From an uncultured Thermoplasmatales archaeon (lineage in GTDB: Archaea > Thermoplasmatota > E2 > DHVEG-1), in contig CAZCPZ010000001.1 in NCBI GenBank assembly GCA_964499875.1, positions 1 to 24,000 of the forward strand: a stretch of 24,000 nucleotides of DNA. The letters are read 5' to 3'. Shown piece by piece: positions 1,833-24,000 of this stretch (its first letter is position 1; every line of letters begins with the position of its first letter). Below the pieces are notes generated by a model that did not search any database, was not told the DNA's origin, and was given only the letters and a program-made list of their open reading frames with translations. Both the position numbers and the translations under genes were made by a program.

Positions 1833-2534
1833 ATGCGAGACATCTAGTACTTTAATCTTATATCTAACAAATTTAATAACTAGGTAGACTACTAGTAATG
1901 CAGCTAATAGGCTTACGAATACTCCGAGTTCCTCCCATGATACTAGAAAGTTGTATAAACCATGGATGAGGAAAGCAAGTAGGAAGTATGGTATAACTCT
2001 GAGACGAGAGGTGTTGAGAATTAAACTTTTACCGTAACCATAACCAGTTAAAGCAGTTGCTGATGCATGAAGCAAGCATCCTCCAATGCTTCTAATACTC
2101 ATTAGTATAATAAATACCGTTAAACCCTCTGATAGGAAACTCCAACCGTAGAATAGGTTTTCTGTTGCAGAGAAACCAAGACCAGCAACTGCACCATAGA
2201 TTAAACCATCTTCTAATTCCTGTAGAGATCTCCTAACTGTTTTAGTGCGAAGAGCCATTGGTTTAGCGATTTCCTCTGCAAAAGGAGCAATGAGTATAAC
2301 CGTTAGAAGAGTGAAGTCATCCGCTGATGTGAAGGATATAGATATTGAGATATCCAGTATTATCTCTAGGAAGAGAGCTGCTATTACAGCGAGTGATGCA
2401 CCCCATAGGAAGCAGAATAGAATGGTACTCCATCTCTCCCTATTATATCGTTCAGTGTTTCTAATCCATATAGTGTATATCAGTGGCGGTAGGAAGGATG
2501 CTATAAGTAGGATAATCAACTCTCTAGTATTCAC
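1827..2534 (-). CDS. PrsW-family intramembrane metalloprotease
   Basis: Polytopic membrane protein with the PrsW motifs FAEEIAKP (EExxK) and HGLYN (HxxxN). It overlaps the rtcA end convergently by 6 nt. Confidence 0.8.
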   Translation of the reverse strand: MNTRELIILLIASFLPPLIYTIWIRNTERYNRERWSTILFCFLWGASLAVIAALFLEIILDISISISFTSADDFTLLTVILIAPFAEEIAKPMALRTKTVRRSLQELEDGLIYGAVAGLGFSATENLFYGWSFLSEGLTVFIILMSIRSIGGCLLHASATALTGYGYGKSLILNTSRLRVIPYFLLAFLIHGLYNFLVSWEELGVFVSLLAALLVVYLVIKFVRYKIKVLDVSHL

Positions 2535-2620
2535 ATGGTTCTTAAAACCTGGAATGGTTTTTAATGTTTTAGAGGGATCTTTACACCTTTAGGATATACG
2601 TGGAAAGAAGGGAGAGAGTG

Positions 2621-4123
2621 TTAGCCTAGTATTATCATTAAAACAAGGATTTTCACTAGGTAGAGGATTGGATCAAAGAGAGGTAATCTTAGTATAAATG
2701 GTATAGGTGCTACTGGTGGTCCTTCTTCTGGTAGAGTAGAGGAGTTGGTTAATCTAATGAAGTGAACGGTGTTTCTTTTAATCAACTTGTTTACATTAAA
2801 GGTTTCTCCATTAGAAACTTCTTCATCTATAATTTCTAGGTGATGAGAATCATCTATTATGTAGTAGGCTATGGTGTAAGATGAGTTCCAAGGTATATTA
2901 GTTATGTTAATGTTGTACTCTGTATCTACTGCATCATAGTTGCTTATCAAGATGGAGATGTTGTTTTTATCTTTGGAGATACCTGCTAGATAATTGATCC
3001 CCGGGTGGATCGTTGTCTCATTAATGGGTGTTAACCTAATAGGTGTGTCTTGGGTGATATAGTATAGTGCCTTGTACACCAAGGCTGGTGTTTTATATAA
3101 ACCTTTATCGGTGAATAAACTAAGGTCGAAACCTGAGAGTTTAAGTAACCAGTTGTTATCTTGGGTTCCACGGTATCTAAAAGCATAGTTAAGATCAGCA
3201 TCTTGAAATAGTATAATTGAGTTGGCTGTAAAAGCAGCATTTCTAGCATTTTCTTTGTCTCTCTGAGGAGTTAGTAGATGAATATTCCACTCAGTTAGTA
3301 TATCCTCACATTCTGTTAAACCAAAGGAGTCAAGTAGTGATCTAACTCTTAGAGAATTAACTCTTAGCTCCTCTGGAGTTGTTGCGTAGCAATGCCAAGA
3401 GAAGAAATCAATTAGTACATTATTTTCTACTAAGTGTTCAAGGAATAATCTTGTATAGTTGAGGTTATCAATAGATGATACACTTGATCCACCAATTTTT
3501 AGAGAGTTATTATAGTTTTTCAGGGTTTGAGCAGTTATACTGTAAAGTTGATAATATTCCTCGCTGGTTCCATTCCAGAAACCTTTTAGATCTGGTTCAT
3601 TCCATATCTCCCAGTATGTGATATTATAGTGGTAGCCATTGTTCCATCCATCATTATAATGCATAACTATATGTTTACATACCTCAGCCCATTTACTATA
3701 GTTCTCTGGTGGTTGACGAAGAATTTTATTATCACTAGCGCTTTCTCCTAGTCTATAAAATATTTTACAGCCTGCATCTATAATAGATTTTATAACCTCA
3801 TCAGACTCGCTGAAATCATAGCTGTTTTCATCAAAGGGGTCAGCGCTCCAATTCGGGAATATGCTATGTATATCTGTTGGTCCAAAGAAGTCATGTGTCC
3901 TAACCATATCTACTCCAATATCCCTGTATTGCTCTATTAACTCAACACCTTCTATATAATACACAGGGGAAGGGCCACAGTTTATCTCACAATAAGATTT
4001 GATTAAACCATACGTATTCAAGCAATCTAAATGTGTTTCCAGAGAAGAACCATCTGGTGGGGTTTCAAACATAGAAAGAAGGATAAAAACAAGAACAGCT
4101 AAACCAATGGTAAACTTACTCAT
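2621..4123 (-). CDS. Secreted, membrane-anchored clan GH-A glycoside hydrolase, GH39-like
   Basis: N-terminal signal-like helix. YWEIWNEPDLKGFW is an acid/base NEP motif (Glu codon at 3596-3598) that resembles the alpha-L-iduronidase/GH39 FETWNEPDHHDF context. Also LKIGGSS, FFSWHCY, and the putative nucleophile ILTEWN. Many N-x-S/T sequons. C-terminal hydrophobic tail ILYLVKILVLMIILG. Confidence 0.75.
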   Translation of the reverse strand: MSKFTIGLAVLVFILLSMFETPPDGSSLETHLDCLNTYGLIKSYCEINCGPSPVYYIEGVELIEQYRDIGVDMVRTHDFFGPTDIHSIFPNWSADPFDENSYDFSESDEVIKSIIDAGCKIFYRLGESASDNKILRQPPENYSKWAEVCKHIVMHYNDGWNNGYHYNITYWEIWNEPDLKGFWNGTSEEYYQLYSITAQTLKNYNNSLKIGGSSVSSIDNLNYTRLFLEHLVENNVLIDFFSWHCYATTPEELRVNSLRVRSLLDSFGLTECEDILTEWNIHLLTPQRDKENARNAAFTANSIILFQDADLNYAFRYRGTQDNNWLLKLSGFDLSLFTDKGLYKTPALVYKALYYITQDTPIRLTPINETTIHPGINYLAGISKDKNNISILISNYDAVDTEYNINITNIPWNSSYTIAYYIIDDSHHLEIIDEEVSNGETFNVNKLIKRNTVHFIRLTNSSTLPEEGPPVAPIPFILRLPLFDPILYLVKILVLMIILG

Positions 4124-4266
4124 TAAAAAAAGTATATATAAATAATGGTATTTAAAACATTGAGATAAGATTTTTTGACATAGAAACTAAATTTAGCAGA
4201 ATAGAAACAATCTGATACCGCGTTGAGAGATAATTTTTATATATGTCAACTCCTTAGAAGTTTCTT
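4124..4266. promoter_or_regulatory. Divergent AT-rich promoter region with TATA-like boxes for both flanking genes
   Basis: TTTTTATATAT at 4235-4245 is centred about 27 nt before the GTG at 4267. On the minus strand, TTTTAAATA (4150-4158) and TTTATATATA (4134-4143) lie upstream of the ATG at 4123. Neither start has an SD motif, which suggests leaderless or very short leaders. Confidence 0.35.
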
Positions 4267-5175
4267 GTGAAAATAGAGGTATACTTTGTTTTAGTGCTTT
4301 TAATGATAACCTCTCTTCTATCTGGTTGTGTAACAGATGAGGATAGCATCATATATGATGGAAGAATAAGGTTCTACTTACTTCATTTACCTAAGAGCTA
4401 TAACCCCTCTACTCCTACACCTCTTGTTATAGCTTTACATGGCGGTGGAGGAAACGCTCACCACATGGAGGAGAAAACAGGTTTTAGTTTATTGGCAGAT
4501 GAAGAAAGATTCATAGTTGTGTATCCAGAGGGTACAGGTAGGTTGAAACATAGAGGTTTAACATGGAACGCTGGTTACTGTTGTGGTTATGCATTGGAGA
4601 ATAATGTAGATGATGTAGGATTCATTGAAACCCTGATTAAGAAATTAGAGAGTGAATATAATATTGATCCAAATAGAATCTATGTAACGGGTCACTCGAA
4701 TGGAGCCATGCTAACATATAGAGTGGGAGCAGAATTATCTAATATAGTTGCTGCTATTGCACCAGTTGCAGGATCCATAGGTGGTTACGCTACTAATGAT
4801 TCTCCATTATGGGTTATACCAGAGCCAAAGTATCCTGTTTCTGTTGTAGCTATCCATGGTTTACTTGATGCTCATGTACCATATTATGGTGGTCATGGTT
4901 CAAATGCCACTGGTAGTAGAATAGATTTATCAGTGAATGAATCTATATCCTTCTGGGTTCAACACGATGATTGTGATTCAACTCCTATTAGAGAGGTGTA
5001 TGGTAATATAGTTAAAGAAACCTATTCTAATGGAAGTAATAATACAGAGGTTGCGTTATATACTATCCTAGATGGCGATCATAGATGGCCTGGTTCATAT
5101 ATAGAGGAATACAAGAATTTCTCAGCTACTAGGGTGATATGGGATTTCTTTAAGAGTCATCCTAAAAATATTTGA
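4267..5175 (+). CDS. Secreted lipoprotein esterase, PHB depolymerase / LpqC (CE1-like) family
   Basis: Lipobox-like LLSGC after a hydrophobic N-terminus. PLVIALHGGGGN, FIVVYPEG, WNAGYCCG, DDVGFI and the nucleophile elbow YVTGHSNGAM match the COG3509-type esterase pattern. Confidence 0.75.
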   Translation: MKIEVYFVLVLLMITSLLSGCVTDEDSIIYDGRIRFYLLHLPKSYNPSTPTPLVIALHGGGGNAHHMEEKTGFSLLADEERFIVVYPEGTGRLKHRGLTWNAGYCCGYALENNVDDVGFIETLIKKLESEYNIDPNRIYVTGHSNGAMLTYRVGAELSNIVAAIAPVAGSIGGYATNDSPLWVIPEPKYPVSVVAIHGLLDAHVPYYGGHGSNATGSRIDLSVNESISFWVQHDDCDSTPIREVYGNIVKETYSNGSNNTEVALYTILDGDHRWPGSYIEEYKNFSATRVIWDFFKSHPKNI

Positions 5176-10138: not shown

Positions 10139-10504
10139 TTGATGGTGTTGAGAGTATTCTATGTGGTTGTGCTCCTAGTTTCACTGCTTCTAACCCCTAT
10201 GTTATCGATGTGTCAGGATATCTCCTCTAGTAGTATTTTATCTGGTGGAGTATACTATGTTGCTCCATGGGGAGATGATGATAACCCTGGTACTATAGAT
10301 AAACCTTGGCGTACCATTGGTAAAGCCGCTGATACACTTGAAGCAGGAGATACAGTATATATCAGAGAAGGTGTATACTATGAGAGGGTCATACCAAGGT
10401 ATTCTGGTACTCAAGGTAGTTATATAACATATGCTGCTTTCCCTGGGGAGAATGCAACTATAAGTGGTAAGGAATTAGTTTACCTGATGATCTCACGGGT
10501 TTAA
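10139..10504 (+). CDS. N-terminal fragment (signal peptide + DUF1565-like start of a right-handed beta-helix protein), interrupted by a frameshift
   Basis: Signal-like MVLRVFYVVVLLVSLLLTP, then YYVAPWGDDDNPGTIDKPWRTIGKAADTLEAGDTVYIREGVYYE (pectate-lyase-fold N-cap pattern). The ATG at 10142 is a more likely start than the TTG at 10139. The frame ends 33 nt after the point (10469-10471) where homology switches to the -1 frame. Confidence 0.7.
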   Translation: MMVLRVFYVVVLLVSLLLTPMLSMCQDISSSSILSGGVYYVAPWGDDDNPGTIDKPWRTIGKAADTLEAGDTVYIREGVYYERVIPRYSGTQGSYITYAAFPGENATISGKELVYLMISRV

Positions 10505-10611: not shown

Positions 10612-12633
10612 GTGGCTAAGGATAACTATATCTATAACACTAGTTCCTCTGGTATAGGTGTTTGGGAGAGTAGCGATATAGTTGTTGATGGAAACGAAGT
10701 AGTTTTAGCTTGTAATGATGGAGAGGAAGAGTGTATAACGATTGCTGGTACTAAAGGTTTTGAGGTTAAAAATAATCTTGTTCATCATGGTGGACCAGGT
10801 ACACTTGGTGGAGAGGGTATAGATATCAAGGATGGTTCTAGAAATGGTAGGGTTTATAGAAACAAGGTTTATCATCTGAATAGGATAGGTATCTACGTTG
10901 ATGCTTGGGATAAACATACTTACAGTATTGACATCTACCAAAACATTGTATATGATTGCAATGCATATGGTTTCGCAGTGGCTTCAGAGAAAGGAGGGCT
11001 ACTAGAGGAGGTAAGGATCTATAATAATGTTGCGTATGGTAATAGTATGTGTGGTATAGGTGTAGCTGGTTGGGGTGAACGTGTCTTTAGGCATCCTATG
11101 AGGGGTATAGTGATAATGAATAATGTTTTCTATGATAATGGCAGGGGAGACTGGGGTGGGGGGATCTCAATTGAGAATAGGGATGCAGAAGATATTGTTA
11201 TTAGGAATAATATTTGTAGTCAAAACCTTCTGTTTCAGATACAAGTAGAGGTTAAGATACCAAATCTAGTGGTGGATCATAATTTGATTGATGGGTATAG
11301 GGGTTATGAGACAGAGATTCGTGGTGAGAATTATGTAGAGGGTGATCCATCGTTTATGAACCCCAGTCTAGGTGATTTTCATCTAACGAAGGGATCCCCA
11401 GCTATAGATAATGGCTCCTCTAATGGTGCCCCTGGTTTCGATTTCGATGATAACTATAGGCCCCGTATGAATGATTATGATATAGGTGCTTTTGAGTATC
11501 CTAGAACAAAGTATTATGGAGTAGATACTATTGAGAAGGAAGAGTTTTCATTCCTCAAGAATCATTTAGGTGGAAACCTAGCAGGTGTAGCATTAGAATG
11601 CAGTGTTGAGGATTGGTGGGAAACCTTGAGGGAGGCTGAGAGGAATAATATTAGGCTTATTATATGGCCTCTTGGTCATGGTCACCAGTATACCCCTTGG
11701 AAGTGGAATGGTACAGGTTGGGATATCTCTGAGGGTTTAGAGGTTTTAGAGTATGCAGAGAGTTATGTTACTAGTGGTGGAGAATCCTTATTAGCTGTGT
11801 TAATGTCTCATGAACCATTCTGGAATGATGGGAATCCTTTTACAACAAGTCAGATGAAACAACTATATTCTAAGCTAAAAAGTGTTGCTCCTCATGTTAA
11901 ACTCTATGTTGCTTTTGGTTGCCTATCTTGTTTTGATGTTAACCCTGATACTAGGATTGAGAATGGCATCGCGGATGTAGCTGGTATATGGCTACATTGC
12001 TTTGGTGGAATGGAAGGAAGCATAGAGGATGCATTGAATAGGATTGATAGAGACTATGAGTTGATACAAGAGAAGAATTTGGATATGGATTTATTTTTTG
12101 CTATTCAGACTTTTGGCATAGAGGGTACAAGATACAGGATGCCTTCTGCTAATGAGATGCTAGAATTTGGCAGTAGGGTTTTTGAGAAGAATAAACTCGA
12201 TGGAATCTTCTGGTATCCATGGGGTAACCCAGCTGGTTACACAGAGTGGTTAGAGAAGGATAGATATGATGAGAAGGGTAATGATAGGTGGAGTGTTGTA
12301 CAGTATTTCTCAGATGTTTATATGAATAAGAGTGAAGCATTGTATGTAGAAATAGTTAGACCATCCAACTACCTGTATGTGTTTGATAATGAGATACTAC
12401 CTTTTGGTTATCCTTTGATTATAGGTGGAGTAACTATTAGAGTAGAGGTATCTAAGGATGTTGATGGAGTTGAATTTTATATTGATAATGTCTCGAAGTT
12501 TGTGGATACAGAGGAGCCTTTTGAGTGGTTCTGGGATGAGAACATTATTGGTTGGTCTGAAATAAGGGTAGTGGCTTATGGAGATAATGAACAAGTAGAT
12601 GATACATTATCTACTCTAGTGATTAATACTTGA
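10612..12633 (+). CDS. C-terminal portion of the same beta-helix protein: parallel beta-helix repeats + TIM-barrel-like domain + Ig-like tail
   Basis: Periodic beta-helix repeats (NYIYNTSSSGIGVWESSDIVVDGNEV, NLVHHGG, NKVYHLNRIGIYV, NIVYDCNAYGF, NNVAYGNSMCGIGV, NNVFYDNG, NNICSQN). After about residue 300 come an alpha/beta region and a C-terminal beta-sandwich-like tail. This frame is open back to 10471 and encodes further beta-helix sequence (GISLPDDLTGLIYIADKSYIKVERLNIKDV...), so the GTG at 10612 is probably not a true start. Confidence 0.7.
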   Translation: MAKDNYIYNTSSSGIGVWESSDIVVDGNEVVLACNDGEEECITIAGTKGFEVKNNLVHHGGPGTLGGEGIDIKDGSRNGRVYRNKVYHLNRIGIYVDAWDKHTYSIDIYQNIVYDCNAYGFAVASEKGGLLEEVRIYNNVAYGNSMCGIGVAGWGERVFRHPMRGIVIMNNVFYDNGRGDWGGGISIENRDAEDIVIRNNICSQNLLFQIQVEVKIPNLVVDHNLIDGYRGYETEIRGENYVEGDPSFMNPSLGDFHLTKGSPAIDNGSSNGAPGFDFDDNYRPRMNDYDIGAFEYPRTKYYGVDTIEKEEFSFLKNHLGGNLAGVALECSVEDWWETLREAERNNIRLIIWPLGHGHQYTPWKWNGTGWDISEGLEVLEYAESYVTSGGESLLAVLMSHEPFWNDGNPFTTSQMKQLYSKLKSVAPHVKLYVAFGCLSCFDVNPDTRIENGIADVAGIWLHCFGGMEGSIEDALNRIDRDYELIQEKNLDMDLFFAIQTFGIEGTRYRMPSANEMLEFGSRVFEKNKLDGIFWYPWGNPAGYTEWLEKDRYDEKGNDRWSVVQYFSDVYMNKSEALYVEIVRPSNYLYVFDNEILPFGYPLIIGGVTIRVEVSKDVDGVEFYIDNVSKFVDTEEPFEWFWDENIIGWSEIRVVAYGDNEQVDDTLSTLVINT

Positions 12634-12855: not shown

Positions 12856-15414
12856 GTGGAGAATAAAACATGGTTCTACTTGGTATTAGTAATTAATCTA
12901 TCAATTCTTTCTATTCAATGGTCTAACCTAGAGAATGTTAACCAGTGTTTCCTGAATCCACCTAAGATTAAACATTTGATGGAGGACACAATTACCTATT
13001 TTTCAGTACCAGAGGGTTGTAAACTAGATATAACATTGCATCATATATGGATGTATGGTAACTCCACTTTCAGGGTTTTCAATGAAACCGGTGAGATTTA
13101 CAAGGAGGTTGTTTTTACTAATAATGAGAGTGATGTAACAAAACATGTCTTCTTTAACCAATCTGGTACTTATAAGATGGTTGCTTTTGGAACTGGTTTC
13201 TCATATGATCTAGAGTTTAATGGTTATAGTTCCAATTGGGGTTTCGTTGTAGCTGCTTTTCCACATAAGGGTTTATTTAGACTTAGAGAAGGTGAATCCA
13301 TAAAGGTTTTCTTTAAAGTGAAAGGTAGAAGCTTCTACTTCTATGCTACTGAGGACTTTGATTTAACGAGGAGAGATGGTTATATAGAGGTCTATAATCC
13401 AGAGGGGGATAAGAAAGCTAGTTTCCATCTGATCTCAAATATCCTAGATAACTGTTTCCAGCAGAGTGTTGAGTTGAAGAAGAATAGTGATGATGAAGAG
13501 TTTTGGTATGCCATATTATATGGTGAGGGGAGTAGGACTGCTAAGCTAGGTTTATGGGTTAACCAGAGTAACTATGATTACCCAACCGGTTTAACTACTT
13601 TTTTAACAACCAAACCAGAATACTATTTTAAACCTTGTTTCAAGAGTCGATGTATAGATATAGAGGTTTATGGTGAAATCACTAAAAAAGCACTTGTAGG
13701 AGCAGCTGGTTATCCTTATCGTTATACTGATACCATCTATAATTATACGAGTGAACTTAATCTAAAGACCTTTAATAAATATGTTAGTTGGAGGTGGAGG
13801 GAGAGAGATGAGGATGCTAATCCTAGAAATGATGATAATGATCCTTTTCATATAAACTGGAAGGGGTTTGATTTTAGAAGTTTTGATGAGAGATTCAGTT
13901 TCTTCAACAAACTAGGTATAGCTCCCGTGCTTAACTTGAAATGGAGTAGAGATTGCTTCTTATCTAAACATCCAGCAATCTGGGATGAGAATGATATACA
14001 GGAATACGCAGAGTTTTGTTTAGCCACGGTTATACATTGTGTCGCACCTGATCTAGAGGATCCACCGAGTAATAGAACACCCTATAATATTATGGGTATA
14101 CAGCTTCTAGGTGAACCTAATATACTACTTGAGGAGGAGCTAAATATAGATTCTGCTTTAGATAAATATATTGAGATTCTAAAAATAGTTGGTAATAGGA
14201 TTAAGGATTACCCTGATGGGAGAGTTAATAGTGTAAAGATTTTTGCTCCTGGTATAGGTAGTGATGAACTAGGGGAGTATGGAAAAATATACTGGGTTTC
14301 TCGTATACTTAGAGAAGCAGAGGAATATGTAGATGTGATTTCATGGGATGAATATTATAAGTGGCTGTTAGAGGAAGTAGATAACTATGGTAGAGATACT
14401 AGGGAGATGATTAGTTTAATAAAACACCTGGGTTACGATAAAGAGGTGGGTATGTGTGAATTTAACCTTAGAGGTGGTATACCAACTTCTCAATACTTCT
14501 TTGGCTCTAAGTACTCTGAGTTATATTTGTTTGGCGCCATGGCTAATAGTATCAATAATGGTATGAGGTATATCATCTATTATAGTTTGGTGGATTCATG
14601 GTATGAACCCAGGTTTAAAGGATTAATATCCTCTAATCCCATGCCACCCTACTCAAATATACCTCTTTTAACTAGGAAACCACAGTTTTATTCAATGAAG
14701 ATACTGGGAGAGATATGTAAGGGTTCTATACTCAAACTATCATATGATGCCTCGCAGTTTGATTGTATAGCATCATATGATGACAAGGTTTATAGAATGG
14801 GTTTATCGAATAGATACGAGGGAAAAACCATTATTAAGTTTAATCTAGATAAGAACTTCAAGGTGAAAGTATACAGTGTGGAAAAAGATTCCATAGAATT
14901 CCTCTACGAGAGTTGGAGTAATGAAACCATAGTGATGCCTCCTTGGAGTATATATTATGTTGAAGGAGTTATAGGTGAGTCTAAACCTGATCTCGAGTGT
15001 AGTGGGGAGCTTGTGTGGAGAAATACTAAACCTAATTCTAGTGTACATGGTTATTTCTATGTTGAGAATAAAGGCGATTCTCTCTCCATGCTTAACTGGG
15101 AGATCACTGATTACCCTAGTTGGGGTAACTGGTCTTTCAACCCAATGCGAGGAGAAAACTTGACACCTATAATTAGTCCTATTAGAGTAGATGTAACTAT
15201 TGATGTACCAGATGAGGATAACAAGGTTTTCACAGGGTATATAACAGTTACTAATCTAGATGATTCTATGGATACCTGTAGTATACCAGTTATGATTTCA
15301 ACATCTAGTAATAGATGGTTTTATCAAACCCATCTCGTTAACAACTTGTTTAAACCCCATTGGAGGTTTATCGTTGAGTATAATAGAAACCTTTGGTCTC
15401 ACAAAGAGGTTTAA
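12856..15414 (+). CDS. Large secreted protein: N-terminal beta-rich region, clan GH-A-like (beta/alpha)8 core, C-terminal CARDB/Ig-like domain
   Basis: GTG start followed by a hydrophobic signal-like segment. Colinear with the GH39-like protein at 2621-4123: IQLLGEPN (Glu 14113-14115) vs WEIWNEPD, VDVISWDEY vs IDFFSWHCY, MCEFNL (Glu 14458-14460) vs LTEWNI. C-terminal LECSGELVWRNTKPNSSVHGYFYVENKGDS...WGNWSFNP...FTGYITVTN is a beta-sandwich pattern common in archaeal surface proteins. Dense N-x-S/T sequons. Confidence 0.6.
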   Translation: MENKTWFYLVLVINLSILSIQWSNLENVNQCFLNPPKIKHLMEDTITYFSVPEGCKLDITLHHIWMYGNSTFRVFNETGEIYKEVVFTNNESDVTKHVFFNQSGTYKMVAFGTGFSYDLEFNGYSSNWGFVVAAFPHKGLFRLREGESIKVFFKVKGRSFYFYATEDFDLTRRDGYIEVYNPEGDKKASFHLISNILDNCFQQSVELKKNSDDEEFWYAILYGEGSRTAKLGLWVNQSNYDYPTGLTTFLTTKPEYYFKPCFKSRCIDIEVYGEITKKALVGAAGYPYRYTDTIYNYTSELNLKTFNKYVSWRWRERDEDANPRNDDNDPFHINWKGFDFRSFDERFSFFNKLGIAPVLNLKWSRDCFLSKHPAIWDENDIQEYAEFCLATVIHCVAPDLEDPPSNRTPYNIMGIQLLGEPNILLEEELNIDSALDKYIEILKIVGNRIKDYPDGRVNSVKIFAPGIGSDELGEYGKIYWVSRILREAEEYVDVISWDEYYKWLLEEVDNYGRDTREMISLIKHLGYDKEVGMCEFNLRGGIPTSQYFFGSKYSELYLFGAMANSINNGMRYIIYYSLVDSWYEPRFKGLISSNPMPPYSNIPLLTRKPQFYSMKILGEICKGSILKLSYDASQFDCIASYDDKVYRMGLSNRYEGKTIIKFNLDKNFKVKVYSVEKDSIEFLYESWSNETIVMPPWSIYYVEGVIGESKPDLECSGELVWRNTKPNSSVHGYFYVENKGDSLSMLNWEITDYPSWGNWSFNPMRGENLTPIISPIRVDVTIDVPDEDNKVFTGYITVTNLDDSMDTCSIPVMISTSSNRWFYQTHLVNNLFKPHWRFIVEYNRNLWSHKEV

Positions 15415-16327
15415 CTCCTTTACTGCTGTTAATAGGGTATCTTTTAGTGTTGAGGAGGGCGAAATTTTTGGTTTCCTAGGTCCTAATGGTGCTGGTAAAA
15501 CCACTACGATTAAGATGCTTACAACTCTGCTTCACCCCACTGAGGGATCCGCCACTATCGCTGGTTATGATATTAGGAGGAATAGAAATGAGGTTCGCAA
15601 GGTTATAGGCGTGGTATTCCAAGATCCAGCACTGGATACAGAGCTCACTGGCAGGGAGAATCTTGATTATCATGCTCGTATGTATGGTATGAGTAGGTTG
15701 GAACGAGAGAAACGTATATCTGAGGTTCTCTCACTAGTTGATTTAGAGGATAAGAAGGATACACTTGTTAAGTATTATTCTGGTGGTATGAAACGTAGAC
15801 TTGAGATCGCTAGAGGGTTGATGCATCAACCTAGGGTGTTGTTTCTAGATGAACCTACTCTTGGTTTAGATTCAAAGACTCGTAGGCGTATATGGAGTTA
15901 TATTAGGGAGATGAATAAAAACGAGGGAACAACTATTTTTCTAACTACTCATTATATGGAGGAAGCTGATGTACTCTGTGATAGAGTGGGGATAATTGAT
16001 CATGGTTCTCTAATAGTAGTTGATACACCTAGGAGTTTAAAGAGTAAACTAGGGAGAGATGTTATAACTATTAAAACAAGTGATTCAGATAAACTATGTA
16101 ATATACTTGATGAGGAGGAATGGGTTCAGAAGAGCGAGGTACATGGGGGTATGGTTAATATAGGTGTTGAGAGAGGCGAAGAAAAGATTCCAGTGATTTT
16201 TGAGATTGCTCATAGACATGGGATCCATATAACCTCTATTAGTGTTAGGAATCCTACTCTCGATGACGTGTTTCTTCACTTCACTGGTAGAACCATAGAG
16301 GGGGATAAGAAGATTGGTTTTAGATAG
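15374..16327 (+). CDS. ABC-2-type exporter ATP-binding protein (DrrA-like)
   Basis: Walker A GPNGAGKTT, Q-loop VFQD, signature YSGGMKRRLE, Walker B LFLDEPTLGLD, H-loop TTHYMEEA. TTG is the only possible start upstream of the first conserved strand. It overlaps the preceding gene by 41 nt. Confidence 0.93.
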   Translation: MSIIETFGLTKRFNSFTAVNRVSFSVEEGEIFGFLGPNGAGKTTTIKMLTTLLHPTEGSATIAGYDIRRNRNEVRKVIGVVFQDPALDTELTGRENLDYHARMYGMSRLEREKRISEVLSLVDLEDKKDTLVKYYSGGMKRRLEIARGLMHQPRVLFLDEPTLGLDSKTRRRIWSYIREMNKNEGTTIFLTTHYMEEADVLCDRVGIIDHGSLIVVDTPRSLKSKLGRDVITIKTSDSDKLCNILDEEEWVQKSEVHGGMVNIGVERGEEKIPVIFEIAHRHGIHITSISVRNPTLDDVFLHFTGRTIEGDKKIGFR

Positions 16328-17081
16328 AGAGTTTCAAGCGATTTATGTTATGTGGCTTCGTCAGATGAAACGTTTTATTAGATCTAAGAGTAGAGTAGTT
16401 TCAACTATACTACAACCCATGTTTTTCTTATTCTTCCTTGGAGCAGGTTTTAGGAGAGCTAGTTTGGATGGAATAAATGATTACATCTCTTTTTTAACCC
16501 CTGGTATTGTAGCTATGGCTATCATGCTCTCATCTATGTTCGCTGGAGTCTCAGTTTTATGGGATAGAAAATTTGGTTTCCTCCAAGAGGTTCTTGTTGC
16601 CCCTGTTAGTAGGCTTTCGATTATTATTGGTAGAACCCTTGGTGGAGCAACTATTGCTATACTACAGGGATGTATTATTCTCATTATCTCTATTCTACTT
16701 GGAGCCTCTATATCTGGAAACTTGTTTCTAGCGGTTTTATTCATGGTTTTTATTGCTTTTACTGCTGTTGGCTTGGGTTTAGCAATTGCTTCTAGGATGG
16801 AGGATTTCCAGGGTTTCCAGTTGTTTATGAATCTACTGGTGATTCCTTTACTGTTTTTATCATCAGCTTTCTTCCCTGTGACAAGTGATTCTATGCTTAA
16901 AACTATAGCGTTATTTAACCCATTGTTTTATATGGTTGATGGTTTAAGAGGTAGCCTCATCGATGCTACTGTGGGTGTAGAGGTTGTTAACTCACCCTTC
17001 ATAGATTTAATAGCAGTTGTAATCATCTGTATTTTTATATTAGGCATGGGTAGTATCTTGTTTAGTAGAAGCGAGGTTTAG
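16314..17081 (+). CDS. ABC-2 family transporter permease
   Basis: Six predicted TM helices with an N-terminal amphipathic YVMWLRQMKRFIRSKSR segment typical of ABC-2 permeases. 14-nt overlap with the ATPase gene. Confidence 0.85.
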   Translation: MVLDREFQAIYVMWLRQMKRFIRSKSRVVSTILQPMFFLFFLGAGFRRASLDGINDYISFLTPGIVAMAIMLSSMFAGVSVLWDRKFGFLQEVLVAPVSRLSIIIGRTLGGATIAILQGCIILIISILLGASISGNLFLAVLFMVFIAFTAVGLGLAIASRMEDFQGFQLFMNLLVIPLLFLSSAFFPVTSDSMLKTIALFNPLFYMVDGLRGSLIDATVGVEVVNSPFIDLIAVVIICIFILGMGSILFSRSEV

Positions 17082-17791
17082 CTACTTGGTGGAATCTGGA
17101 ACCAGAATGTATAGGGTGTGAAACCTATCATAACTAAGTTTGAGTAGAAATAACCCGGGAAAACCGCAAATAGGATTAAACCTATATACCCTGTTACATA
17201 TCCAATTAGTAGAGGTAGCATGTATGAGAATAATACGTAGCATACCTTTTCCACTGGATCAAGACACATTACCAAGGCTAGGCCACCAACTATAGCTAGG
17301 AAGCTTGAGAAAGCATTTATGATTCGTTGACCAAACAATCCTAATCCTATTCCAAAGCCGCCTCCAATAACTATTATAGGTGAGAGATGAGCCTGGAAGT
17401 TTTCCATGGACACTATATCATATGATGATATATTCTCCAGTATTCTACCTATGTTTTTACGTGAGAAAATATCTTCAAGAGTTGTGTTTTTATCTACTAT
17501 ATTGTGTTTTTTCAGTATCTCTAGTTCTGATTCAAGTTTATCTACTATATGAAGATCTATTTCTTCTGCGGTTTCTGATAGATTGTTAAGTAAATGCTTG
17601 TATTCCTCGAAGGGCATGTATTTTATCTTCTTCTCTATTTGACCACCCTCTTTATATCTTATTATGTGCAATCGAATGGTTTCCCCATCTAAGCGGTGTT
17701 TACTAGGTTTCGATGTAGAAGGTGTTATTGATGAGTAGGATAACACTAATAGTAGAGCTATAATAACTGTGATTTTGTTTTTGATTTGCAT
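17078..17791 (-). CDS. Hypothetical membrane protein (signal/anchor, charged helical ectodomain, glycine-zipper TM bundle)
   Basis: The ATG at 17791 is preceded by GGAGGGTGG (the ORF track extends it to a GTG at 17806). N-terminal hydrophobic segment, about 110 aa rich in K/E, then IIVIGGGFGIGLGLFG and three further hydrophobic segments. I recognise no family motif. Confidence 0.6.
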   Translation of the reverse strand: MQIKNKITVIIALLLVLSYSSITPSTSKPSKHRLDGETIRLHIIRYKEGGQIEKKIKYMPFEEYKHLLNNLSETAEEIDLHIVDKLESELEILKKHNIVDKNTTLEDIFSRKNIGRILENISSYDIVSMENFQAHLSPIIVIGGGFGIGLGLFGQRIINAFSSFLAIVGGLALVMCLDPVEKVCYVLFSYMLPLLIGYVTGYIGLILFAVFPGYFYSNLVMIGFTPYTFWFQIPPSS

Positions 17792-17878
17792 TTTTCCACC
17801 CTCCACTTGGAATGAGGTAAACCTAAAACAACCATATTATTTAATTTTGTCGATTTTTAATTCGTTTTTTAACGATAA

Positions 17879-20039: not shown

Positions 20040-20618
20040 TTAGATGAAGAAACCTGTTATAGAGATTCTGATCCAGTTGAAGAAACCCACGCCTTCTAGT
20101 TTTATATCACCATTCTTTATTGCTTGTCTAAACCCCTCTGGATTCATGGTTTCCAGTAGATGTCTCACTATTCTCTCTGTTGTATACACGTTTATAGTTG
20201 GATCTTTTATTGGTCCCTGTTGAAATTTTACTAGTTTACCCTTCTCTATGATTACTCCTATGGTTATCACTGCTCCATTATCCTTTGTTATAAACCAGTT
20301 CATCCGCTCATCTGTGAGATATTTACCTACATCATAGTTTTTAACTACTCTACTTAGTTGAAGGAAAAGGTCATCTTCTTTACCTATGGAGAGAAGCAGG
20401 ATTTTATATGCATCTAAGGATGTAACTCTACCGTCTCTATCCATATCCGCTATTGGATCCTCACCTATCTTACCTACAGCCATTTTTAGAGCTATGAGTG
20501 CATCTACACTTGTTATCTCCTCATCATTGTTAATATCTCCCGTTATTGTTTGAGCATTAATTATGGAAGCAGGGATGATAAATAGGAGAGAGGTTAGGGG
20601 GAGGAATCTATGCTTCAT
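20040..20618 (-). CDS. Secreted dockerin-containing protein with C-terminal SCP2-like domain
   Basis: Signal peptide (LLFIIPASIINAQ). Two 22-residue dockerin repeats, DINNDEEITSVDALIALKMAVG and DMDRDGRVTSLDAYKILLLSIG (20379-20540). The C-terminal ~105 aa end in ...NPEGFRQAIKNGDIKLEGVG, which resembles the SCP2 sterol-carrier fold signature (tentative). The ATG overlaps the upstream stop as ATGA. Confidence 0.75.
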   Translation of the reverse strand: MKHRFLPLTSLLFIIPASIINAQTITGDINNDEEITSVDALIALKMAVGKIGEDPIADMDRDGRVTSLDAYKILLLSIGKEDDLFLQLSRVVKNYDVGKYLTDERMNWFITKDNGAVITIGVIIEKGKLVKFQQGPIKDPTINVYTTERIVRHLLETMNPEGFRQAIKNGDIKLEGVGFFNWIRISITGFFI

Positions 20619-21178
20619 TTTCTTGACCCTCTATGCCTCTTATAGATAAATATAATTATTATTGAAAACATGAGTATAAATATTTCAAAACCAGGTGTTC
20701 CTCCTCCACCTTCTTGAGACGTTGAAGCTGCTGCGGCTTGGAAGTTTCCATGTTCTACTGTAACCTCTATATCTGCATGGCTATCTACATCATAGGCTTT
20801 AGCATTCTGTATCGTTACAGATGTTGAACCATTACTTAGAACATTAAAGGTTATCCTAGCTATTTCTCCATCACCATTTATACCATTAGAGTCAGCTATA
20901 CCTATAGTTATTATACCCTCATTATCAGTATTTGATGACAGCATCCCCTTAACTAGGTCTCCTTTCTCCACTTTTAATACTTCTAGTATTGATGGATCAT
21001 ATAGGATTGTTAAATCTATGCTACCAACGTTTACTGCATCTTCTACTATCACTGATACCCGTGTTTCTTTACCAATCTCCCCGCTGGTATCTGGAATTGT
21101 TATTGTTAATGCAGCAGTAGTTTGAATAAATAAGGCAAGTGATATGAGAGTAATTATTATAATCTTTAAAAACCTCAT
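20615..21178 (-). CDS. Cohesin-domain protein with PGF-CTERM archaeal sorting/anchor signal
   Basis: Signal peptide, then a cohesin-like module (ETRVSVIVEDAVNVGSIDLTILYDPSILEV...GDGEIARITFNV...VEHGNF). Ala/Ser/Gly linker, then GTPGFEIFILMFSIIIIFIYKRHRGSRK (PGF + hydrophobic helix + basic tail) at 20618-20710. Confidence 0.8.
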   Translation of the reverse strand: MRFLKIIIITLISLALFIQTTAALTITIPDTSGEIGKETRVSVIVEDAVNVGSIDLTILYDPSILEVLKVEKGDLVKGMLSSNTDNEGIITIGIADSNGINGDGEIARITFNVLSNGSTSVTIQNAKAYDVDSHADIEVTVEHGNFQAAAASTSQEGGGGTPGFEIFILMFSIIIIFIYKRHRGSRK

Positions 21179-21187
21179 TCTTTATCA

Positions 21188-21195
21188 ACCTCCTT
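21188..21195 (-). promoter_or_regulatory. Shine-Dalgarno sequence AAGGAGGT for the cohesin/PGF-CTERM gene
   Basis: The plus-strand ACCTCCTT at 21188-21195 reads AAGGAGGT on the minus strand. It lies 9 nt upstream of the ATG at 21178 and just after the upstream stop at 21198-21200. A similar GGAGGAG at 23987-23993 precedes the ATG at 23978. Confidence 0.6.
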
Positions 21196-21197
21196 TC

Positions 21198-23978
21198 CTA
21201 CCCTCCTAACCCTATATCAAAGGTATACTTTATACCCTTACTGTAACCCATCAGTAGATAGTTTGTTTTATCAGCTTGTCTCTCTGTGGCTTCCTCTAGT
21301 ATCTTAGCCGCATCTAGAGATGTTACTTTACCATCATTATTCATATCGCCAATTAGATTCTCCTCTATCTTCCCAACATACATCTCTAGAGCTAATAATG
21401 CATCTATACTTGATATCATACCATCTCCATTACAGTCCCCTTTTAGTAGATCCATGGAATTAGGATCCTCAACTGTGAATACACCATTTATTATCTCGAT
21501 GTCAACAGTGTTATCATTTACATCATTTGCAGAGGCTTCTAAGGTAATAGTTGTATAGTCTCCAGGATCGCCTGTAACATTGAAGGTTATAACTGCTACA
21601 GATCCGTTTCCACTGAATCCATCGGTGTCTACAAAAGCTATGCGAACCTCACCATCTAGAATGTTTGACTCGAATAGAGAGTCTGAAGTGAAGGAACCCG
21701 TTACTGCCGAGACAGCGGATAAAACACTAGGGTTGTATCTAACTATTAAATCCATGTTTCTTATATCCCTGGCATTCACCATTTGAATAGGTATCTCAAC
21801 GGTTTCATTCGGTGGCATACTTCTACTTTCGGTGAATAAAATAGTTTTATCACTACTAGTGGTACCACTTGGTATGCCACTACCAATTATACTTCTACCA
21901 TATAAATCTTGGTACATATCAGCTAAACCAGATGGTATACTAGAGTTATCTGTTGAACCCTGTCCGAAGCCGAATAAGTTACCACTCATAATAGTACCAA
22001 TGATACTAAGAGTTTGAGTATAGTAGCTACCAAGGTTTGAGACGAGGTAATCCAGTATAAGGTATCCATCCTCGCTGTCATAGTATACAACCGGTGTAAC
22101 CTGGTAGTATTTATCTTCATCTGTTATACCACCAGCGTAGTATACATGTATACTTGTTTCCTCCGTGAACTCTATTCTATGAGTAGTTACCTTCTCATTG
22201 GTTCTTTCTTTATTAGACCACCCTCCAAACCCAGGGATTTGACTAGCGATCTTATCAAACAAACTTCTAGATTTAATTGTTACACTATGAGTTGATTTTT
22301 CTTCATTGAAACTTGACTCTGACATCCTAATCCATGTCCATTGTTCATCTGGACCAATTGACATTCCATGAGCGAAACCTTGTATCTCATTGTTTCTATC
22401 ATAGTTTAGTAGATCCCTTGTTCTAGATGGATAGGTAGCTAGTACTCCATAGGTATGCACCGGGGAATCATATGGTATAGTACTAGGTGTTGGTCCCTGT
22501 ATTGGTACCATTATCAACAGTGTTTCTCCACTGAGTTCATCTGGTTTTATAATTGGGTACTCATAAACCTTATAGGTTGTAGTGACTGCAACCATGTAGT
22601 CCCTAGAATCTGCACTGAAACCATATCCAACCTCGGTTTCATATGTTGAACCAGTTGTTTTCTCCCATTTATTCGTAACCTTCTTAGATATTGTTATCTC
22701 ACCTTTAAATAAGCCACAGATTCTATTGAATATACCTGGGTCTCCACTTGTAGTGACAATTGAAACTGATTTTACACTCATAGAAGTTGATTCACCATGT
22801 TCATTCTCATACTTTGCATAGAATACACCTCTATCAGGTATAACAGATGGATCTCGAGGTGGAGCATTTATAACCGCTATTATTTGATCAGTAAGTGTAG
22901 CCTCTCCTTTATATGTTGGTTCTCCTACAACAACTGAGTCACCATTTACATCTCCAACAGTTAAACCATCAGATGTTTCATATTCTACATCAAAACTATC
23001 CAACTCATTTCCATTTAAGTTATAGATATGTATTCTATCATCGTGCGCATCACCGGTTACTATCTCGTCTAATCCATCTTGATTTACGTCTCCAGCAGCT
23101 AATTCATCTGAGCCATCAAAATGTGCATCAATTGGCACATAAAGTAGATGCCCATTTTGATCATAGATATAGATTTTATGATAATTGTTTCCCTCTCCAA
23201 ATATGATTTCTTCTAATCCATCTCCATCTACGTCTCCACATGCTACTTCATCATCTCCATTGAAGTGCCCTTCTCTACTTGGGTCATCACCGGCAGCTGG
23301 GAAATCATCTATCTCTCTAAGCTTGTTGGATCGACTTGTATCATATTTGAATATATGAAAGTAACCATCACTGTCATCTCCATGGATTATCTCATCTATT
23401 CCATCTCCATCTATATCTCCAGCGGCAATCCTGTCGCTCCTTGTGAAACCATCATCGATCTCATACCAAGCTATCTCGTTACCATTTATATTAAAAACCC
23501 TTAAACCTTTACCGTTTGGATCACTTGCATCTCCCAGTATAATCTCCTCTTTACCATCCCCATTTATGTCTCCAACTGCTAGGTCATCGTATCTCTCAAA
23601 ATCTACATCAAAATGGGTTATCTCTGAGCTACTTAGATCTCCGGAGCTAGGTGGGACATCATATATATGTATATCATCGTCACTTGCATCACCTATAACA
23701 ACTTCATCTACTCCATCTCCATCTATATCTCCAGCAACGATAGCATCATGATTTTCATAATTTCTACTGTGGTAAGAAGTACTTATGCCACCTATAGAAG
23801 GATGGCTACCATCCATCTCGAAATACCATATCTTATCTCCTCTATCTCCTAGTATGATCTCACCATTCATTATAATCTTACCTTTACCAACTGGTGGTGT
23901 ATCCTCAGCATTTACTATTATACCTACTGCTATTAGAATTAGTAGTATTCCACCAAGATATATTATGGTCTTGGACAT
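21198..23978 (-). CDS. Large surface protein: N-terminal signal/anchor, seven FG-GAP (integrin-alpha-like) repeats, unassigned core, cohesin module, dockerin module
   Basis: FG-GAP calcium-loop motifs AGDIDGDGVDEVVIGD, VGDINGDGKEEIILGD, AGDIDGDGIDEIIHGD, CGDVDGDGLEEIIFGE, AGDVNQDGLDEIVTGD and VGDVNGDSVVVGE, plus a degenerate first repeat. Cohesin-like ETVEIPIQMVNARDIRNMDLIVRYNPSVLSAV...GNGSVAVITFNV...INGVFTV (about 21471-21806). Dockerin GDCNGDGMISSIDALLALEMYVGKIEENLIGDMNNDGKVTSLDAAKILE (21294-21440). Confidence 0.85.
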   Translation of the reverse strand: MSKTIIYLGGILLILIAVGIIVNAEDTPPVGKGKIIMNGEIILGDRGDKIWYFEMDGSHPSIGGISTSYHSRNYENHDAIVAGDIDGDGVDEVVIGDASDDDIHIYDVPPSSGDLSSSEITHFDVDFERYDDLAVGDINGDGKEEIILGDASDPNGKGLRVFNINGNEIAWYEIDDGFTRSDRIAAGDIDGDGIDEIIHGDDSDGYFHIFKYDTSRSNKLREIDDFPAAGDDPSREGHFNGDDEVACGDVDGDGLEEIIFGEGNNYHKIYIYDQNGHLLYVPIDAHFDGSDELAAGDVNQDGLDEIVTGDAHDDRIHIYNLNGNELDSFDVEYETSDGLTVGDVNGDSVVVGEPTYKGEATLTDQIIAVINAPPRDPSVIPDRGVFYAKYENEHGESTSMSVKSVSIVTTSGDPGIFNRICGLFKGEITISKKVTNKWEKTTGSTYETEVGYGFSADSRDYMVAVTTTYKVYEYPIIKPDELSGETLLIMVPIQGPTPSTIPYDSPVHTYGVLATYPSRTRDLLNYDRNNEIQGFAHGMSIGPDEQWTWIRMSESSFNEEKSTHSVTIKSRSLFDKIASQIPGFGGWSNKERTNEKVTTHRIEFTEETSIHVYYAGGITDEDKYYQVTPVVYYDSEDGYLILDYLVSNLGSYYTQTLSIIGTIMSGNLFGFGQGSTDNSSIPSGLADMYQDLYGRSIIGSGIPSGTTSSDKTILFTESRSMPPNETVEIPIQMVNARDIRNMDLIVRYNPSVLSAVSAVTGSFTSDSLFESNILDGEVRIAFVDTDGFSGNGSVAVITFNVTGDPGDYTTITLEASANDVNDNTVDIEIINGVFTVEDPNSMDLLKGDCNGDGMISSIDALLALEMYVGKIEENLIGDMNNDGKVTSLDAAKILEEATERQADKTNYLLMGYSKGIKYTFDIGLGG
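22914..23876 (-). repeat. Intragenic array of about seven FG-GAP repeat units (about 140-185 nt each)
   Basis: Recurring GAT-rich D-x-D-G-D-G coding motif. An exact 24-nt duplicate TCCATCTCCATCTATATCTCCAGC occurs at 23400-23423 and 23712-23735. These are coding repeats, not CRISPR. Confidence 0.8.
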
Positions 23979-24000
23979 TCTTCTATCTCCTCCGGATCTT

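Follow-up and report, generated by a model that had tools for sequence, protein, structure and literature searches.

The gene studied here encodes a putatively secreted protein in which a type-I-like dockerin is followed by a domain that very probably adopts the SCP2 fold, an assignment that is well supported by structure prediction. It lies in a window of 24,000 nucleotides (the whole stretch of DNA analysed, with a G+C content of 37.5%) and is the last of three contiguous genes that encode cohesin or dockerin domains. Because the gene order is shared and the cohesins of the window are closest to the PDB entry 2xdh, the window appears to carry the Thermoplasmata version of the Archaeoglobus-type cohesin-dockerin cluster. 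The SCP2-like fold as a dockerin-borne module appears to be new; the cohesin-dockerin cassette itself was already known but unexplained. The features of the three genes are collected in the table.

Table. Features of the dockerin-SCP2-like gene and of the two neighbouring cassette genes; positions are those of the window and residue numbers those of the respective protein.
Feature	Position	Strand	Basis or remark
SCP2-like dockerin protein gene	20040..20618	-	ATG-to-stop ORF, 192 aa
Signal-peptide-like N-terminus, aa 1-22 (MKHRFLPLTSLLFIIPASIINA)	20553..20618	-	read from sequence
Type-I-like dockerin, aa 25-80, two F-hand calcium-binding repeats	20379..20546	-	Pfam PF00404
SCP2-fold domain (predicted), aa 82-192	20043..20375	-	AlphaFold2 and Foldseek
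C-terminal helix, unusually hydrophobic, aa 178-192 (GFFNWIRISITGFFI)	20043..20087	-	after near-invariant G178
Small cohesin protein, 187 aa: signal peptide, cohesin aa 25-144, PGF-CTERM-like tail	20615..21178	-	Pfam Cohesin 62.6 bits
PGF-CTERM-like tail of small cohesin, aa 157-187 (GGGGTPGFEIFILMFSIIIIFIYKRHRGSRK)	20618..20710	-	motif by eye
Secreted 926-aa protein, first cassette gene	21198..23978	-	FG-GAP beta-propeller region, unassigned middle region, cohesin, dockerin
Cohesin of the 926-aa protein, aa 720-833	21480..21821	-	Pfam
Dockerin of the 926-aa protein, aa 846-892	21303..21443	-	Pfam

The open reading frame ends with a stop codon at 20040-20042 in the ORF list and includes the peptide that had been quoted in an earlier, sequence-only reading of this DNA. 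Five full-length homologues with 69-95% identity to the 192-aa protein are present in other assemblies, one of them a named protein, RLF41361.1, of a Thermoplasmata archaeon MAG. The gene is judged to be real and conserved because these five homologues share its neighbouring genes. Inspection by eye of the N-terminus, in which MKHRFLPLTSLLFIIPASIINA is followed by QT, showed a basic n-region, a hydrophobic core of 16 residues and an I-N-A cleavage-type motif, so that it looks like a Sec signal peptide. Equivalent hydrophobic N-termini are present in all the homologues. A lipoprotein or lipobox reading was rejected, the N-terminus having no cysteine.

The Pfam Dockerin_1 family (PF00404) matches aa 27-71 of the protein with an E-value of 9.6e-7 (29.4 bits, against a gathering cutoff of 22.9), and the PDB dockerins 1daq and 2mte align to aa 25-81. 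Both calcium loops are intact in the sequence (D28-x-N30-x-D32...D39 and D58-x-D60-x-D62...D69), with D or N at loop positions 1, 3, 5 and 12 and a helix after each loop, as in dockerins of type I. The overall layout proposed from the letters, a signal peptide and a two-repeat dockerin in front of a C-terminal domain, is thus borne out by the ORF, the Pfam match, the calcium loops and the appearance of the N-terminus; the remainder behind the dockerin was put at about 105 residues, close to the 111 residues counted here (aa 82-192). The dockerin can be aligned with the dockerins of the cassette propeller proteins. In this alignment the second helix carries the signature DA[YF]xIL[LQM]L in the dockerins of the SCP2-like proteins, whereas that in the dockerins of the propeller proteins is DA[AM]xI[LM]. 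These differing signatures suggest that the two sets of dockerins may prefer different cohesins.

The structure of the C-terminal domain was predicted with AlphaFold2 from an alignment of 71 sequences (A4), the diverse relatives in it coming from an exhaustive profile search. Without templates, the model reached a pLDDT of 86.2 and a pTM of 0.75; AlphaFold2 on the full protein with six close homologues only gave a pLDDT of 36.6. In the model, aa 82-192 begin with a helix; four strands come next, then a pair of helices, the fifth strand and a last helix. The arrangement is that of the SCP2 fold, in which helices precede the first strand of a five-stranded sheet, separate its fourth and fifth strands and follow the fifth. 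A Foldseek comparison of the model with the PDB returned the SCP2 fold at each of ranks 1-23 (probability 1.00, best E-value 3e-5, TM-scores of 0.47-0.59), the TM-scores being moderate and the rmsd values high. The best match is Aedes SCP2-L2 (3bdq, E 3e-5, TM 0.56), and the same 23 ranks include Yarrowia SCP2 (4jgx), Archaeoglobus AF1534 (3bn8/3cnu), human SCP2, Thermus TT1886 (1wfr/2cx7) and the C-terminal SCP2-like domains of alkylsulfatases; UbiJ-SCP2 follows lower in the list. The alkylsulfatase matches (SdsA1, 2cfu; Pisa1, 2yhe) have the lowest rmsd (3.4-4.6 Å), at 20-22% identity. The sequence-only reading had named an unrelated fold with no hydrophobic cavity as the result that would speak against it; in the Foldseek comparison, SCP2 is the one fold to which the model is assigned.

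The sequence profiles remain below their thresholds. The comparison with the Pfam SCP2 profile (PF02036), to which the sequence-only reading had pointed, gave no match in the window protein at any E <= 10, and a Pfam and NCBIfam scan of aa 82-192 gave none at E <= 1. Scanning the family consensus and eight stand-alone members against Pfam returned nothing relevant, the consensus having no SCP2 match at E <= 10. Matches below threshold are found in the relatives only: among 71 domain-only relatives, Alkyl_sulf_C is matched by 6 (best E 2.4e-4) and SCP2 by 4 (best E 1e-3), and these two are the only Pfam families matched by more than two of the 71. Both families belong to the SCP2 clan. A search of the PDB sequences with the family HMM did not find SCP2; its best match, the helical TorS (E 0.017), was dismissed as spurious. 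The hhalign comparisons are not significant either, with an E-value of 0.16 for human SCP2 alone and of 0.055 for a low-diversity vertebrate SCP2 profile, the human SCP2 query sequence being 100% identical to the database entry. The alignment at E 0.055 pairs PTINVYTTERIVRHLLETMNPEGFRQAIKNGDIKLEGVGFFNW with a segment of human SCP2 and sets beta4, helix D, beta5 and helix E in the SCP2 register, in agreement with the structural register. The terminal G-x-hK/hE-G motif noticed from the letters reappears in the hhalign result, in which NGDIKLEG of the window domain is aligned with QGKLKITG of human SCP2 at an E-value that is not significant. By its sequence, then, the domain falls short of SCP2 membership at the Pfam threshold. 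The proposed fusion of a dockerin to an SCP2-like domain holds for the fold, on the AlphaFold2 model and 23 of 23 Foldseek matches, and does not hold for the Pfam profile.

The domain resembles the SCP2 carriers in its predicted size of ~110 aa, in the order of its helices and strands, in its best Foldseek matches and in its G-x-I-K-L-E-G segment, which aligns with G-K-L-K-I-T-G of SCP2. In contrast to these carriers, which are cytosolic or peroxisomal, the window protein is putatively secreted, is fused to a dockerin and lies below every curated sequence threshold. The domain has a single long N-terminal helix, whereas SCP2 has three N-terminal helices, and its family shows polar NERxN and DPTxNVYTxE motifs and a much more hydrophobic last helix. 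The conservation table of the 71 sequences shows that one face of every strand is uniformly hydrophobic, a pattern to be expected where a sheet lines an apolar core or cavity. Conservation is strongest at polar residues (E104, R105, N107, D139, P140, T141, N143, Y145, E148, N181 and K/R184); of the two motifs, NERxN is located in strand 1 and DPTxNVYTxE around strand 4. As deduced from strand alternation, the conserved polar residues are located on the sheet face opposite the hydrophobic one. The last helix follows G178, which is near-invariant (69 of the 71 sequences). Its Eisenberg mean hydrophobicity is 0.57, compared with 0.07 for helix E of human SCP2, its hydrophobic moment is low, and the pLDDT falls to ~50 over the last dozen residues of the window protein. 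A transmembrane span was rejected for this helix, which is too short (14-15 residues) and contains N181 and R184.

Similarities are also present with the alkylsulfatases SdsA1 and Pisa1, whose C-terminal family, Alkyl_sulf_C, is the one most often matched, below threshold, by the relatives of the window domain. There, as is predicted for the window protein, an extracytoplasmic SCP2-fold unit is an accessory joined to another component. However, the module of the alkylsulfatases is covalently fused to a metallo-beta-lactamase-type enzyme, whereas the window domain would be attached non-covalently through its dockerin, and the cassette has no enzyme gene.

An exhaustive profile search with six C-terminal domains retrieved 337 clusters (50% identity) at E <= 1e-3, 25 of them at E <= 1e-10. 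Word-indexed homologue searches returned six near-identical proteins only, and a few more with an alignment as the query. The consensus of the roughly 95-aa domain reads ...FGNERINxYI...G...DPTLNVYTSE.TI..I..S.DP....ALK.G.I.YEGVGFFNKIKF... The named members are all archaeal (Thermoplasmata, Archaeoglobi, ANME-1, Nanoarchaeota and 'Euryarchaeota'), include WP_048094681.1 of the cultured Geoglobus ahangari and are annotated only as hypothetical or 'dockerin type I repeat'. A signal-peptide-like hydrophobic N-terminus is present in 126 of 147 family representatives. The same 147 representatives show five arrangements: a signal peptide and the domain only (59), the domain right behind the signal peptide and then more sequence (58), the domain as the very last part of a large surface protein (16), a short N-terminal module and the domain (12, six of these with dockerins) and an internal domain (2). 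The 58 C-terminally extended representatives are typically ~300 aa long, the domain being followed by an acidic linker and then a cupredoxin-like domain. The Pfam families found in family members include beta-helix/NosD, laminin-G, peptidase C13, DUF11 and FG-GAP. The gene neighbourhoods of stand-alone members, one from ANME-1 and two on metagenome contigs, contain housekeeping genes only and give no hint of lipid metabolism. With the fold taken from the model, the family is best described as a divergent, mostly secreted archaeal SCP2-fold family that has so far been unannotated.

The arrangement of signal peptide, SCP2-like domain, acidic low-complexity linker and cupredoxin-like domain, seen for example in P0019, P0025, P0028 and P0030, accounts for ~40% of the representatives, and one family member of this SCP2-like and cupredoxin-like type comes from a Nanoarchaeota MAG. 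The pairing joins a lipid-binding fold to a redox-type fold.

The cassette occupies 23978..20040 of the window on the minus strand, in the order propeller protein with cohesin and dockerin, small cohesin, dockerin-SCP2-like protein. The ATG of the dockerin-SCP2-like gene overlaps the stop codon of the small cohesin by 4 nt (ATGA), and a gap of 19 nt separates the small-cohesin gene from the propeller gene. The dockerin-SCP2-like gene is probably translationally coupled with the cohesin gene, and the three genes are read as one operon. The 926-aa protein matches the Pfam families FG-GAP_3 (62.2 bits), Cohesin (48.9 bits) and Dockerin_1 (30.8 bits). The tail of the small cohesin, read by eye, consists of TPGFE, IFILMFSIIIIFIY and KRHRGSRK, and a tail of this PGF type is present in every orthologous small cohesin. 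Among the NCBIfam models, Heimdall-CTERM and Loki-CTERM match this tail below threshold, and PF18204 has a weak match on the Geoglobus small-cohesin orthologue. From its tail, the small cohesin is presumed to be the membrane anchor of the complex.

A genome scan with a 10-sequence alignment found four loci. Two Thermoplasmata MAGs (L001 and L003) and an Archaeoglobus MAG (L006) have the same three-gene order, as does Geoglobus ahangari in its complete genome (L009), where the 4-nt gene overlap is repeated as well. A fourth Thermoplasmata locus and an Archaeoglobales locus, counted by protein only, also encode a dockerin-SCP2-like protein. L001 has, at 2109..4498 of JBMXPX010000084.1, an extra upstream PD40/Tricorn propeller-cohesin protein and a second small PGF-tailed cohesin; its cassette appears to be duplicated or modular. 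The comparison of the window with L001 covers the window up to its end at 24000, the region upstream of the propeller gene lying outside it. In L006 (736..2732) two overlapping ORFs take the place of a single propeller/cohesin/dockerin gene, which suggests a frameshift or an assembly error.

The closest PDB match of both window cohesins is 2xdh (E 1.4e-11 for the propeller protein and 1.2e-12 for the small cohesin), which we take to be the cohesin from Archaeoglobus fulgidus described by Voronov-Goldman et al. (2011). As in the Archaeoglobus-type cassette, the large cohesin-plus-dockerin protein, the small cohesin and the dockerin protein are contiguous, and this holds for the Archaeoglobus MAG and Geoglobus too. 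The host of the window, however, is a Thermoplasmata-type archaeon, and the first gene of the window encodes an FG-GAP propeller, whereas the propeller is of PD40/Tricorn type in Geoglobus (L009) and at some Thermoplasmata loci (L003 and the extra upstream gene of L001). The Archaeoglobus cohesin-dockerin cluster has been called enigmatic since 1999. A. fulgidus itself presumably has a third, dockerin-only ORF in this cluster. The accessible literature yielded no assignment of a fold or function for that third ORF, and a literature search for SCP2 linked with a dockerin found none. The dockerin of ORF2375 and the cohesin of ORF2376 of A. fulgidus form a strong and specific pair in experiments (PMC9705933). 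For cohesin-dockerin systems that are not part of a cellulosome, published accounts still give no known function (PMC5244752; PMC9012536).

Bacterial cellulosomes are likewise assembled at the cell surface from cohesins and dockerins that fit together like socket and plug, and they too have a cohesin protein as anchor. However, the anchor in the window is PGF-CTERM-like, not based on SLH domains or sortase. A cellulosome was rejected for the cassette, which has one cohesin per protein and neither a multi-cohesin scaffoldin nor any carbohydrate-active enzyme or CBM. The cargo domains of the window are a propeller and an SCP2-like fold, not carbohydrate-active enzymes.

Other genes of the window are recorded here as separate observations. 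A 302-aa esterase at 4267..5175 (+) matches the NCBIfam model for the extracellular catalytic domain of type 1 short-chain-length PHA depolymerase with 173.8 bits, against a cutoff of 150, an annotation unusual for a Thermoplasmata-type archaeon; it adjoins a GH39-like glycosidase at 2621..4123 (-). A beta-helix surface protein (Pel9A-like/NosD/disaggregatase-related) with choice-of-anchor Q and Big_7 domains extends over two consecutive ORFs at 10139..10504 and 10612..12633 (+), a split that may reflect a frameshift, a pseudogene or an assembly error. An 852-aa ORF at 12856..15414 (+) is without a match in Pfam or NCBIfam. Its last part overlaps the beginning of a DrrA-type ABC ATPase, which is followed by an ABC-2 permease (15374..17081), and the ORF may be an uncharacterised accessory component of the DrrA-type exporter. 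A 242-aa ORF at 17078..17806 (-) likewise has no Pfam or NCBIfam match.

The model that we favour, with somewhat better than even confidence and by analogy with characterised systems, is a cohesin-tethered SCP2-like binder of hydrophobic ligands at the cell surface. The small cohesin protein would be fixed at the membrane by its PGF-CTERM-like tail, and the propeller protein would dock onto it, by analogy with A. fulgidus 2375/2376. Having both a cohesin and a dockerin, the 926-aa propeller protein would act as a bridge, and the SCP2-like protein would plug through its dockerin, in a calcium-dependent manner, into the remaining cohesin as a small docked subunit. To our knowledge, hydrophobic ligands are bound by every characterised SCP2-fold domain among the Foldseek matches. 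The SCP2-like domain of the window would, by analogy, most likely hold an apolar ligand too. The apolar part of a hydrophobic molecule would be placed between the sheet and the helices, candidate ligands being a fatty acid, an isoprenoid lipid, a hydrocarbon or a quinone-type compound. With such a ligand in the module, the hydrophobic molecule could therefore be captured, presented or handed over at the cell surface. The cohesin that is bound, the cavity, the bound ligand and the identity of this ligand are what we infer in this model, and 'cargo' is one reading of the docked SCP2-like subunit.

A plain carrier model leaves the conserved polar face and the very hydrophobic last helix unexplained. 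The protein could instead be fixed to the membrane by this helix or by a membrane lipid occupying the pocket. The SCP2-like domain would then be a membrane-association or anchor module and its dockerin a second attachment point for the propeller protein, making the protein an adaptor or anchor and not cargo. The mean hydrophobicity of the helix (0.57) with its low hydrophobic moment is consistent with such a role, as is the AlphaFold2 confidence of ~50, a value also seen in segments that need a partner or a membrane. The 16 of 147 representatives that are large surface proteins ending in the domain, at the usual site of archaeal anchors, point in the same direction, together with the 58 in which the domain follows the signal peptide and precedes an acidic, stalk-like linker and another domain. 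However, 59 of the 147 representatives are stand-alone, and an anchor with nothing to anchor makes little sense. The helix, with 14-15 residues including N181 and R184, is too short to span the membrane, and the cassette already has a dedicated PGF-CTERM-like anchor. We regard the membrane module as possible but rather improbable.

The polar face would be accounted for if the SCP2-like fold served in protein or glycan recognition through this face and its hydrophobic pocket were vestigial; an S-layer component, a partner cell or the propeller protein would be examples of partners. SCP2 carriers are normally weakly conserved in sequence, whereas the strongest conservation among the 71 diverse sequences falls on polar residues that strand alternation clusters on one sheet face. 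The fusions of the domain to adhesin-type modules (FG-GAP, laminin-G, beta-helix and DUF11) are also in line with recognition. We nevertheless consider recognition unlikely: the facing of the residues is deduced from sequence alternation, there is no known partner, and the characterised SCP2-fold domains among the Foldseek matches bind hydrophobic ligands. It is far less probable still that the SCP2 resemblance is a modelling coincidence and that the domain has an unrelated, undescribed fold or function. Although the sequence-profile evidence is sub-threshold throughout and the TM-scores are moderate, the AlphaFold2 model is confident without templates and its 23 top structural matches (23/23) are all of one fold. 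The sub-threshold Pfam matches fall independently within the same clan, and the hhalign register agrees with the structural register. The tethered binder of hydrophobic ligands is retained as the preferred reading.

The SCP2 fold predicted for the conserved third gene provides the first functional clue to this cassette, and the hypothesis is testable in the cultured Geoglobus ahangari. If the SCP2-like domain is an anchor or adaptor instead of a ligand binder, it would be a new kind of surface-attachment module. A widespread family of secreted archaeal SCP2-fold proteins, with a Nanoarchaeota member among them, would be a candidate for extracellular or cell-to-cell lipid transfer. A wider proposal, which we put forward tentatively and with considerable doubt, is that the whole family (at least 337 clusters, from Thermoplasmata, Archaeoglobi, ANME-1 and Nanoarchaeota) consists of secreted SCP2-fold modules that move lipids or other hydrophobic molecules outside the cell, and that the cassette is a surface-tethered lipid-capture device. 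If this were true, possible roles would include the capture of fatty acids or hydrocarbons by Archaeoglobi-type degraders and the scavenging of lipids by DPANN symbionts that are unable to make their own membranes, and the versions fused to cupredoxin-like domains might shuttle lipophilic redox carriers. The 'enigmatic' archaeal cohesin-dockerin system would then gain its first function.
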